Below are positions 48,270 through 50,245 of a DNA stretch of 64,000 bases, piece by piece. Location: NCBI GenBank assembly GCA_963843515.1, contig CAWJKH010000004.1, positions 35,867 through 99,866 on the forward strand, written 5' to 3'. The notes beneath the pieces are model-generated. The model was given only the letters and a program-made list of their open reading frames with translations, was not told the origin of the DNA and ran no database searches. The position numbers and the translations under genes are program-made. How positions within the stretch are numbered: the stretch's first letter is position 1; the number at the start of each line of letters is the position of its first letter. Source of the stretch: an uncultured Actinomycetota bacterium (GTDB lineage Bacteria > Actinomycetota > Thermoleophilia > RBG-16-64-13).

Positions 48270-48349
48270 TCCCCAGCACTTGCCGCCGACGATTGGGGCC
48301 TGACTGTCACGCGGTGTTCGGGTCCGCCTCAGTCCGTCTGCTGCTGACG
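48270..48349 (+). repeat. 5' part of a repeat copy split by IS481 insertion
   Basis: Ends ...CAGTCCGTCTGCTGCTGACG immediately before the IS. Confidence 0.6.
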
Positions 48350-50084
48350 TGTCAAGTCCCAGTACCCGCTTTACACTCTGGCTCCGGTTCCTTCTTTACA
48401 GTCAATTCGGCCCCGATCGGGAATGTCGATTTCTCTAGGAGGCTTTGAGCTTCCTCGGTCTGCCTTTGCGAACGCCGAAGGCGCCGTGCTCCTTCTCCTT
48501 GTCGTGCCGAGCGGGATGGGTGCGGATGAGCTTGCCCCCGGCCCAGATCTGGACCGTGTCTCCCGCCAGGCGCACCTCCACCTGCTTGCCGGCGAAAGCC
48601 GTGCCCACCCGATAGGCGGTGCCGGCGAAGCTCAGGTCACCCCGGGAGTCCACTTGGCGAAGGACGGCTGGGTGAGCCAGCTGCGACCTGACTCCCGTCC
48701 CGTGCTGCCGCCTTCTGAGCGCCGGCTCTTCCGCCTCCTCCCGGTGCTTGCGGGCAAGCGTGGCCACGAGCACGTCGTGGTGGAAGATGTTGACCAGGCC
48801 GTCAGGGCCGAACTCGATCTCCACCGTTTTCCCACCTAGGAACCGGCCCACGGTATAGTCAGCCCCCGCCAGGCGCAGGCGCCCGTTCTCGCTCACCTTG
48901 CGGATGGCTCGAGGACCATGAGGCGGGAGGTGGTCCGCCTGTTCCCACTCGGGAGCTTCCTCGGGAAGGAGCGGCCAGAGCCCCTCGGAAGCCGCAGCGG
49001 CGAAGCGATCATGGGGTGAGGCCATACCGATGCCCTGGTGGGGCCGCTCGGTGTTATAGAAGGCCACCCAGGCGTCCAGTTCGGTCTGGGCTTCCTCGAG
49101 CGAGGCGAAGACCCTCCCCGCTAAGAACTCCTTCCGGACGGTCTTGTGGAAGCGCTCCACCTTGCCGGTCGTCGTCGGGGAGCGGGGAGCGGTGAGCAGA
49201 TGCCGGATGCCGTTCTCCCGACAGATGCGGTCGAAGAGCACCTCACCGCGGCTGGGACCGAAGCGGCTCGTGAACACCTTGCCGTTGTCGGTGAGGATCT
49301 GGTCGGGGACGCCATAGCGGCGAAGAGCGAGAGCGAGAGCTTCGCATACCGGCCGGGCCGTGGCCCGGGGCACACAAAGCGCCGAGACGCAGAAGCGGGA
49401 GTGATCATCCAATCCGGTGATGATCTTGAGCTCGGAGCCGTCTTCAAGCTTCACCCCGCCCATGATGTCCATCTGCCAGAGCTCCATGGACCTGCTCCTT
49501 TCCCAGCGCTTATAGTGCTCCCGGCGCCTTCGCCTTTTCGTGGGGTCGATGAGTCCGTGGCGGACGAGACAGCGATAGATGGAGGAACGCCCCGGCAGAG
49601 GTTCCACCCCAGCTCGGGCCAGCTCATGACGGATAGTGCGCGGGCCCCATAAGGGGTGAGTCCGGCGGAGCCCAAGCACCTGGGCTATCACTTCGGGTGG
49701 CATCTGGTGGGGGCAGGATGCTGGCCGGCAGGGGTGGTCCAGAAGACCGGCGATGCCTGATGCTGCATAGCGCCGGAGCCAGGTGTGCACCGTCTGACGG
49801 GTCACCCCATAGCGACGAGCCACGTCGGTGATCGGGGTGCCGCCCATGACCTCGAGGACCGCTTTGTGCCGTTGTTCCACCAGTCCCAGCTTGACGAGCA
49901 TGGTGTCGACCTCCCTCGATACGAGCCATTTCTGACCGTATCGGAGGGATTGGGACCGGAGGCAAAGAGAAGGCAAGTGTCAAATAGGTACCGGAGCCAG
50001 TGTCGCCCAGGTACCGGAGCCGCGTCCTGAAACTGTCAAGCACCTACCGGAGCCAATGTGTCAAGTATCTACCGGGACAACACA
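48350..50084 (-). mobile_element. IS481-family insertion sequence
   Basis: Both termini begin TGT (TGTCAAGTCCC / TGTGTTGTCCC). It is flanked by a 14-bp direct repeat GTCTGCTGCTGACG. The transposase-proximal end carries three copies of an ~25-bp motif (TGTCAA[AG]...TACCGGAGCC). Confidence 0.7.
48435..49901 (-). CDS. IS481 family transposase (DDE, rve core)
   Basis: N-terminal HTH, ITGLDDHSRF...LTDNG...YNTERPHQG. Start at MLVKLG. Confidence 0.8.
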   Translation of the reverse strand: MLVKLGLVEQRHKAVLEVMGGTPITDVARRYGVTRQTVHTWLRRYAASGIAGLLDHPCRPASCPHQMPPEVIAQVLGLRRTHPLWGPRTIRHELARAGVEPLPGRSSIYRCLVRHGLIDPTKRRRRREHYKRWERSRSMELWQMDIMGGVKLEDGSELKIITGLDDHSRFCVSALCVPRATARPVCEALALALRRYGVPDQILTDNGKVFTSRFGPSRGEVLFDRICRENGIRHLLTAPRSPTTTGKVERFHKTVRKEFLAGRVFASLEEAQTELDAWVAFYNTERPHQGIGMASPHDRFAAAASEGLWPLLPEEAPEWEQADHLPPHGPRAIRKVSENGRLRLAGADYTVGRFLGGKTVEIEFGPDGLVNIFHHDVLVATLARKHREEAEEPALRRRQHGTGVRSQLAHPAVLRQVDSRGDLSFAGTAYRVGTAFAGKQVEVRLAGDTVQIWAGGKLIRTHPARHDKEKEHGAFGVRKGRPRKLKAS

Positions 50085-50245
50085 GTCTGCTGCTGACGCG
50101 TTTGCCCCCGAAACGCCCCCGAACTCGCCCAAAAGACACGAAGACCCGGTCTTACCGACCGGGTTCCGGCACACAATTCTTGGCTTTCCTAAGCGGAGAG
50201 GGGGGGATTCGAACCCCCGGTACCGTTTGCACGGCACAACGGTTT
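50085..50245 (+). repeat. 3' part of the IS481-split repeat copy
   Basis: GTCTGCTGCTGACGCGTTTGCCCCCGAAACGCCCCCGAACTCGCC...GCGGAGAGGGGGGGATTCGAACCCCCGGTACCGTTTGCACGGCACAACGG. Confidence 0.7.

Follow-up and report, generated by a model that had tools for sequence, protein, structure and literature searches.

An IS481-family insertion sequence in a tRNA-Ser-derived repeat, and a clade of relatives located behind tRNA genes

The DNA considered here, called the window, is a stretch of 64,000 nt (64 kb) from an uncultured Actinomycetota bacterium (assembly GCA_963843515.1, contig CAWJKH010000004.1, positions 35,867–99,866 of the forward strand). Direct reading of the sequence places an insertion sequence (IS) of the IS481 family on the minus strand at window positions 48350–50084 (1,735 bp), inside a repeat derived from a transfer RNA (tRNA) gene, tRNA-Ser(CGA). 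It is very likely an intact member of a clade of elements that land behind tRNA genes. Clade members do not land at random and show an orientation-specific, phased association with the 3' halves of tRNA genes. In about 80% of unique insertions, the IS end with four subterminal sites faces the 3' end of a tRNA gene, a transfer-messenger RNA (tmRNA) gene or a tRNA 3' fragment. The tRNA-directed clade is a proposal of this analysis and not a recognized family; the window IS, co-oriented with its tRNA and 108 bp away from it, falls within the 83–119-bp range used to describe the clade.

Association with tRNA Genes

The related loci collected number 160, with transposases 52–83% identical in amino acids (aa) to that of the window. 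The best aa identity is 83% for genome contigs and 74% for metagenome contigs; the protein collection, whose search added closer transposases of 85–87% identity, gives 87%. The clade is large and mostly found in uncultured Actinomycetota. IS ends were located by profile searches and duplicates were removed by flank, giving 110 unique 5' junctions, each with at least 180 nt upstream, and 108 unique 3' junctions. Because one relative (locus L056) adjoins the same tRNA as the window IS and this coincidence needed testing, the related loci were scanned for tRNA genes. In most of them, the strand that encodes the transposase also carries a tRNA gene, whose end lies about 95 bp ahead of the IS.

An intact same-strand tRNA or tmRNA gene precedes 63 of the 110 5' junctions, and a tRNA-like 3' fragment with a T-arm motif precedes 24; nine junctions abut another IS end and 14 lie in none of these contexts. 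The gap to the 3' end of the intact tRNA or tmRNA is 83–119 bp in all but one of the 63. Within 160 bp upstream of the 5' junctions there are 63 tRNA genes on the same strand and none on the opposite strand; within 160 bp past the 3' junctions there is a single tRNA, that of L056. The chance rate is estimated at about 3 in 10,000 per insertion, assuming typical values of about 4 Mb for the genome and about 50 for the number of its tRNA genes. The tRNAs behind which the elements sit comprise 26 anticodon species, in addition to tmRNA. The fragments include many tRNA-fMet halves that start with the anticodon loop, as well as ends of tmRNA. Identical IS copies are found behind different tRNAs of one genome (Pro, fMet fragment and Ala in L011, L013 and L015; Met, Pro-GGG and Pro-CGG in L074, L075 and L076; Val and Ala in L057 and L058), and therefore represent separate transposition events.

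Distances from the first base of the T-arm motif GGTTCGAATC to the first IS base fall into peaks at 107–112 bp (19 junctions), 116–124 bp (49 junctions), 129–137 bp (12 junctions) and 142–143 bp (four junctions), with one more junction at 114 bp, between the first two peaks. Their best-fitting period is 11.2 bp (vector strength 0.585), a value that 5,000 simulations drawn from a smooth distribution never reached. The same IS can use different peaks, as shown by copies at 111 bp (L015), 118 bp (L013) and 134 bp (L011). Two other candidate landmarks were rejected. The distance from the terminator hairpin to the IS is far more variable than that from the T-arm (standard deviation 19 vs. 8.4), and there is no local target consensus, the relative entropy being about 0–0.2 bits over the 70 bp before the junction, duplicated bases included. 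The loose hairpin distance and the unconserved 70 bp point to the 3' half of the tRNA gene itself as the conserved landmark.

In the window, the four-site end is directed toward tRNA-Ser(CGA) and begins 108 bp from the tRNA 3' end, the transposase gene and the tRNA both being on the minus strand. The T-arm motif GGTTCGAATC of this gene (50206–50215, minus strand) has its first base 131 bp from the first IS base, which corresponds to the third clade peak. The window IS obeys the clade rule and has therefore split the one repeat copy that is still joined to a whole tRNA. An IS with an 85%-identical transposase (P0004) is found behind tRNA-Ser(CGA) in locus L164 (1035–2767), with the duplication CGATACCACGGGAC, and also in L163, behind another tRNA-like end and with a 15-bp duplication. 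The L164 element occupies the same homologous column of a diverged tRNA-Ser trailer as the window IS. These two insertions are best read as independent events, because their duplications differ between the loci and are perfect within each; the shared column hints that local trailer features may also matter.

Transposase and Subterminal Repeats

The transposase gene (48435–49901, minus strand) encodes 488 aa from an ATG at 49901, and direct reading finds a Shine-Dalgarno-like GGGAGG (49910–49915, minus strand) 8 nt ahead of it. It is the only open reading frame (ORF) of coding-type composition within 48350–50084 and is uninterrupted; tblastn matches in relatives begin at its residue 1. The NCBIfam IS481 model NF033577 (transpos_IS481) matches residues 38–325 with 289.6 bits against a cutoff of 224, whereas the IS3 model (138 bits, cutoff 160), the IS21 model NF033546 (79 bits, cutoff 160) and the ISNCY/IS1202-type model NF033594 (79.3 bits, cutoff 250) all stay under their cutoffs, and the single ORF has no orfA/orfB frameshift of the IS3 type. 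These scores agree with the family named in a first-pass annotation, made from the sequence of the window alone. Pfam recognizes HTH_28/HTH_32, rve/rve_3 and two Mu-transpos_C_2 stretches, and plasmid relatives are annotated as IS481 family transposases in RefSeq. By every feature tested, the element is classified as an IS481-family member, and not as IS21, IS1202-type or Tn7-like.

The candidate catalytic residues of the Asp-Asp-Glu (DDE) triad are D145 (WQMD), D205 (LTDNG) and E249 (GKVER), which are invariant in 57 homologues. The triad was assigned from motif position and from alignment with IstA, the Glu being aligned with the GKVER motif of IstA. The protein is predicted to have an N-terminal helix-turn-helix, an RNase-H-like DDE core, two C-terminal beta-barrels and a basic tail. 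In an AlphaFold2 model of moderate quality (predicted local distance difference test, pLDDT, 66.8), the putative barrels span residues ~331–383 and ~413–463 and are visibly alike in sequence. The structural matches closest to the model are IstA of IS21, TnsB of Tn7-like elements and CRISPR-associated transposons, and MuA. Ordinary IS481 transposases on plasmids (e.g., ISEc19) align only up to about residue 385, and the second barrel and basic tail would therefore be an addition in this clade.

The transposase-5' end carries four direct units of about 25 bp with the core GGCTCCGGTAC...TGACA (49975–50084, minus strand), the outermost being the terminal inverted repeat, with start-to-start spacings of 23, 33, and 25 bp. 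Two units of the same motif, inverted with respect to the other end, occupy the transposase-3' end (48350–48403, plus strand), with the tip TTGACA pointing outward on the minus strand. The longest inverted repeat between the ends has 47-nt arms with 72% complementarity. Three imperfect repeats of about 25 bp had been reported at 49990–50075 in the first-pass annotation; the repeats are real, and the set is extended here to four direct units and two inverted ones at the other end. Eighteen diverse relatives keep the four-plus-two layout despite drift of the sequence that separates the cores. Conservation of position across relatives is as expected for transposase-binding sites, the role already suggested for the repeats, and the units very probably are such sites, because multi-site asymmetric ends are what IstA, TnsB, and MuA bind.

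Target Selection

How the site is chosen can be proposed only tentatively. In one reading, given somewhat less than even odds, a single transposase, without a helper ATPase, a selector protein or a guide RNA, would read the T-arm/acceptor DNA of any tRNA or tmRNA gene and insert about 100 bp downstream, in one orientation and at positions set by the helix; it would be the first described prokaryotic IS that targets tRNA genes generally. The six end sites would be occupied by an assembly of several transposase protomers, in the manner of IstA, TnsB, and MuA at their own sites, and the complex would cut the target with a 14–15-bp stagger. Direct contact with the DNA of the T-arm and acceptor, in the 3' half of the tRNA gene, would fix its position, with the ~100 bp in between kept on one helix face. 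For the part that contacts the tRNA gene, the second C-terminal beta-barrel and the basic tail, both specific to the clade, are the strongest candidates. If true, a multi-site transpososome would act as a protein "ruler," and the system would be a bacterial counterpart to the targeting of genes transcribed by RNA polymerase III (Pol III) by Ty3 and TRE elements.

Two more specific candidates for the recognition step were tried and rejected. The T-arm was compared with the IS binding unit as a possible pseudo-copy of it; the best register was as expected (GGCTCCGGTAC vs. GGTTCGAATCC), but the profile score was strongly negative. A guide-like GGTCCCAATCC in the 5' untranslated region of the IS resembles the T-arm and is conserved in the closest relatives only, not in the wider clade.

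Several observations weigh against the account given here of the element and its placement. Targeting is not absolute, as 14 of the 110 junctions have no tRNA-like landmark. Simple recognition of the T-arm as a pseudo-end is unsupported by the binding-unit profile. The L164 element has a T-arm distance of 147 bp, with 16 extra bases relative to the 131 bp of the window, and thus lies between peaks. The structural model is of only moderate quality, and all relatives come from metagenome assemblies. No second copy of the exact IS was found in the window or in the public collections searched (exact transposase look-up included), nor was an empty-site allele of this exact locus, the exact 33-nt pattern over the right junction being absent from metagenome contigs; the ends of the element consequently rest on relatives of at most 87% aa identity. 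Finally, none of the other 13 tRNA-Ser fragments of the window holds an IS; these empty copies argue neither way, since fragments serve as targets for relatives as well.

Among the alternatives, the landmark could be read at the level of RNA or transcription, as nascent or mature tRNA or as a polymerase that has stalled on reaching the tRNA terminator. Recognition by proteins commonly uses the T-arm-acceptor minihelix as a module, tmRNA shares it and is itself targeted, and tRNA genes are highly transcribed. We nevertheless regard this mode as unlikely. The 24 insertions behind tRNA 3' fragments have neither a 5' half nor a tRNA promoter upstream, the ~11-bp classes measured from the T-arm point to a fixed DNA anchor, and the position relative to the terminator hairpin is loose. 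A DNA anchor is favored over RNA or a transcribing polymerase because promoter-less fragments are used and the distances are helically phased.

It is improbable that the IS recognizes an att-like (recombination-site-like) repeat and not the tRNA gene. Some IS1202-group elements are reported to abut XerCD sites, which gives a precedent (bioRxiv 10.1101/2022.12.17.520857). The L164 element has inserted independently in the same homologous column in spite of its 16-bp shift in T-arm distance, and the L056 IS has the repeat-like sequence GCGTCCGTCTC on one flank. Yet the repeat is present in none of the 160 related loci except L056, the other 13 repeat copies of the window are unoccupied, and the clade as a whole uses 26 anticodon species and tmRNA with unrelated trailers and unconserved DNA before the junction.

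Random insertion, with position reflecting the survival of harmless insertions in gene-free tRNA trailers, is very improbable. tRNA trailers are indeed non-coding, and the 14 junctions located elsewhere include one in apparent coding sequence (L012). Selection, however, cannot give a strict orientation (63 to 0), a window only ~36 bp wide, or ~11-bp classes with empty bins between them. The other IS side has a tRNA within 160 bp in only one of 108 junctions, and intergenic DNA behind protein genes, although equally harmless, is not used.

Just as little credence is given to the IS being a passenger of tRNA-integrating genomic islands and travelling with them. Many relatives do lie behind tRNA-fMet 3' halves starting from the anticodon loop, typical of island junctions, and the window locus is an array of island-type junctions. 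Each element, however, is directly flanked by its own 14–15-bp duplication, and intact tRNA genes make up most of the targets. A genome can have identical copies behind different tRNAs with unrelated DNA on both sides, and no shared sequence is seen past the IS ends.

Boundaries and Target Duplication

Direct reading places the left junction at 48349/48350 (...CAGTCCGTCTGCTGCTGACG/TGTCAAGTCCC) and the right junction at 50084/50085 (...GGGACAACACA/GTCTGCTGCTGACGCGTTTGCC). The IS ends are thus TGTCAAGTCCC... and ...GGGACAACACA, with TGT...ACA termini and imperfect terminal inverted repeats; in transposase orientation the complete element (48350–50084, minus strand) reads 5'-TGTGTTGTCCC...GGGACTTGACA-3'. 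The target-site duplication GTCTGCTGCTGACG is an exact 14-bp repeat located at 48336–48349 on the transposase-3' side and at 50085–50098 on the transposase-5', tRNA-proximal side. It has exactly two occurrences in the 64 kb, directly outside both IS ends; with one mismatch allowed there are three matches, against 0.04 expected from shuffles. The recent date inferred for the insertion follows from the 14-bp duplication still being perfect. End-profile matches map to 50084–49976 and 48350–48403 only, and the window thus holds a single IS copy. The span proposed in the first-pass annotation, 48270–50245, covers the IS together with the interrupted repeat, and the exact limits of the IS itself are narrower; the exact GTCTGCTGCTGACG pair, the family profile, and the restored repeat all speak for the inserted IS481-family element and the 14-bp duplication that it had described.

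Relatives locate the ends independently of the window. The DNA homology of L001 and L056 to the window IS covers its positions 1–1735 exactly, beginning and stopping precisely at TGT and ACA, as anticipated from the TGT at both termini, and the same TGT...ACA termini are found in 56 relatives. Relatives of 54–87% aa identity have in common these termini, the four-plus-two sites and 14–15-bp duplications of unrelated sequence. In multi-copy genomes, the identity among identical IS copies ends at TGTG... and ...TTGACA, and the flanks are 14- or 15-bp direct repeats with a different sequence at every copy. An exact duplication is detectable in 60 relatives, of 14 bp in 22 and of 15 bp in 23; the few longer values come from adjacent IS ends. 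Since the flanking repeats of relatives are unrelated in sequence, the 14-mer is read as target DNA and not as part of the IS, and a duplication of 14–15 bp as a property of the clade. Other termini, or a 14-mer carried along with the IS, had been named as what would overturn this description, and identical copies show neither. That the 14-mer belongs to the IS or to the repeat family, as might be thought from the third, one-mismatch match GTTTGCTGCTGACG in another repeat copy at 44847, is negligibly probable, because a 14-mer native to the repeat is exactly what a target duplication predicts, exactly one 14-mer is needed for the reconstructed copy to align in register with the others, and the homology of relatives stops at TGT and ACA with flanking repeats that vary from copy to copy.

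In L001 (202–3698), two IS copies, related but not the same, are arranged head to tail with exactly one 14-bp duplication between them; the second appears to have about 10 extra bases at its 5' end. Other tandem or nested cases are L081, L082, L007, L111, and L113, and several insertions lie inside the ends of resident copies. Tandem elements one duplication length apart are consistent with being the expected product of repeated use of one target position behind a tRNA.

A distant IS481-family element on a plasmid of Streptomyces sp. NBC_01343 (L161, 1387–3360; 1,974 bp, 603-aa transposase) has a 14-bp duplication, CCGCTTCGGCGGTA, and only two 5' units, and does not adjoin a tRNA. The long duplication would therefore be more widespread than tRNA targeting. 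Short IS481 transposases were tried as a contrast set and abandoned: the best plasmid matches are even longer (600–603 aa), and L161 alone cannot delimit the clade.

The Interrupted Repeat and Its Locus

At least 14 same-orientation copies of a ~190-nt repeat lie between window positions 736 and 50243. Each consists, in order, of a distal part with two GTCCG motifs, a GTTTGCC...GAACTCGCC block, a hairpin with covariation of its stem among the copies, and ~50 nt from the 3' part of tRNA-Ser(CGA), extending up to the anticodon stem; the trailer portion amounts to ~150 nt. A whole tRNA-Ser is joined only to the last copy (50193–50283, minus strand; ARAGORN, Rfam tRNA model 55.8 bits), and tRNA is the only RNA family found by an Rfam scan of the window. 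The IS has split this copy into a distal part with the two GTCCG motifs (48300–48335, plus strand, from alignment) and a tRNA-proximal part with the GTTTGCC...GAACTCGCC block, the hairpin and the 3' ~50 nt of tRNA-Ser (50099–50243, plus strand, from repeat families and alignment). The terminator-like hairpin behind the tRNA (50143–50165, minus strand; 9-bp stem, 5-nt loop, then a T-rich stretch) is intact despite the IS. It was not called by a simple terminator scan, and a promoter/terminator scan of the locus gave nothing useful.

When 48293–48349 is joined to 50099–50262, the product aligns with 12 other repeat copies without a gap at the junction. Removal of the IS and one duplicate thus restores a collinear repeat copy, as had been proposed, but its description as nearly identical to the copy at 45676 is too strong: the right side (50085–50243) is 91% identical to 45788–45946 over 159 nt, and the whole reconstructed copy only 73% identical to the copy at 45676. 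An uninterrupted orthologous site is present in the related genome of L056 (5663–5905), where the same tRNA is followed by a repeat copy with 82% identity.

The L056 locus of a related metagenome-assembled genome (CAWEJM010000008.1, 3821–5905) has the same tRNA-Ser and then at least three copies of the repeat of the window. Its IS is 83% identical and lies 107 bp upstream of the tRNA, without a target duplication and with a split transposase ORF; one flank, GCGTCCGTCTC, resembles the distal repeat in inverted orientation. This arrangement suggests an IS-mediated inversion or an assembly problem.

The repeat copies of the window are separated by 0.7–7-kb cassettes, in which ordinary genes lie on either strand (PAP2, glycosyltransferase, UPF0182, PepX, nitroreductase, MFS, multihaem cytochrome, NmrA and others), and the array ends at the intact tRNA. 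No integrase was found by Pfam among the 30 largest ORFs of the window, and the unscanned ORFs in 1–50 kb are all too short for one. The array has the appearance of an additive island with att-like junctions; its recombinase would act in trans or be encoded outside the window. In the att-like repeat next to the tRNA, the IS cuts off the distal ~50 nt from the remainder, and use of this copy could be affected if it is a recombination site. Elsewhere in the clade, tRNA-fMet 3' halves starting exactly at the anticodon loop (CTCATAACCCGAAGG...) lie upstream of L006, L013, L038, L078, L095, L096, L102, L104, L114, and L116, which implies that islands integrated into tRNA-fMet are probably common in these Acidimicrobiia.

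The cassette next to the IS encodes a radical SAM protein of 483 aa (46339–47790, plus strand) and small ORFs, including one at 48048–48269 (plus strand). The Cys-rich C-terminus of the former suggests a SPASM-type peptide maturase, no match to a SPASM profile having been obtained, and together these genes may form a small peptide-modification cluster. A gene for an IS110-family (DEDD) transposase (32048–33268, minus strand) is located in a cassette, immediately left of the repeat copy at 33514. Two further repeats occur in the window. Eight tandem units of 21 nt, rich in ACC/ACG, lie inside an ORF at 13305–13517 and would encode a threonine-rich repeat. A duplication of ~420 bp (14259–14676 and 18526–18945; 72–92% identity, 4.27 kb apart) extends over the 3' parts of DUF4332 and DUF7144 genes.

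Comparison with Known Systems

A full-text literature search, which did not cover ISfinder or TnPedia, returned no report of tRNA-directed insertion by IS481 or any other bacterial IS. Within the literature searched, a single-protein IS that chooses its sites by a tRNA anchor and in helical phase seems not to have been described. The element itself is ordinary and its 14-bp duplication is a known IS481 variant; the interesting part is the site-selection rule.

IS481-family elements are 950–1,300 bp long in ISfinder, and the window IS is longer at 1,735 bp. Compared with ordinary IS481 elements, it adds the predicted second C-terminal beta-barrel, the basic tail and the four-plus-two subterminal sites. 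Target duplications in the family range from 2 to 15 bp, most being of 6 bp and "not a few" of about 15 bp, as in ISMac4 and ISA0963-1 (Kojima, 2023; PMC10045372). With this ~15-bp subgroup the window IS shares the single-ORF DDE transposase, the TGT...ACA ends and the imperfect inverted repeats, and its 14-bp duplication fits the ~15-bp class.

IS21 elements have several transposase-binding repeats per end and TGT termini, and they duplicate 4–8 bp of target. IstA of IS21 (PDB 8b4h, 8q4d) is the best match in sequence and fold among solved structures, with the same helix-turn-helix, RNase-H core and beta-barrel. In contrast to IS21, the window IS has no gene for the helper ATPase IstB, as there is no second coding ORF in 48350–50084, and its duplication is of 14 bp.

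The IS1202 group has duplication classes of 5–6, 15–17, and 24–29 bp, about 10 bp apart (PMC10045372), and its ISAba32 subclass is reported to abut XerCD sites, a conserved chromosomal or plasmid landmark (bioRxiv 10.1101/2022.12.17.520857). Common to this group and the window clade are IS481-related DDE transposases, discrete classes with a spacing of ~10 bp and a site chosen beside a conserved landmark. In the window clade, the landmark is a tRNA gene about 100 bp away instead of an abutting dif-like site.

Among eukaryotic elements, TRE3 of Dictyostelium inserts 40–150 bp behind tRNA genes in the same orientation, and tRNA-gene targeting in this organism is tied to the Pol III factors TFIIIB and TFIIIC (PMC5911963). 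TRE3 is a non-long-terminal-repeat retrotransposon, and its likeness to the window clade is functional only, without homology. To our knowledge, bacteria lack TFIIIB and TFIIIC.

Tn7-like elements and CRISPR-associated transposons have a TnsB-like fold and asymmetric multi-site ends, and they insert orientation-specifically into a harmless spot whose distance from a conserved gene is fixed. All this they share with the window clade. Among them are transposons that home next to tRNA genes. The phrase "downstream of tRNA" occurs in Benler et al. (2021; PMC8649781). They employ TnsB with TnsC and either TniQ/TnsD or a guide RNA, whereas the window IS has one gene between its ends, without a TnsC-like ATPase, TniQ, or guide RNA. 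The clade also uses any tRNA and not one attachment site, at a longer distance (~85–120 bp) and in helical steps. If tRNA-directed insertion holds, it would explain tandem pile-ups behind tRNAs and at genomic-island borders, let annotators predict positions, and provide a tractable model for distance measurement along DNA by a DDE transposase. Safe sites are known to be targeted in bacteria by elaborate multi-protein or RNA-guided transposons (Tn7, CRISPR-associated transposons), and tRNA genes are classic targets of eukaryotic retrotransposons; a bacterial element able, with one protein, to find any tRNA gene and insert behind it at a phased distance would solve the safe-site problem in a new and compact way.

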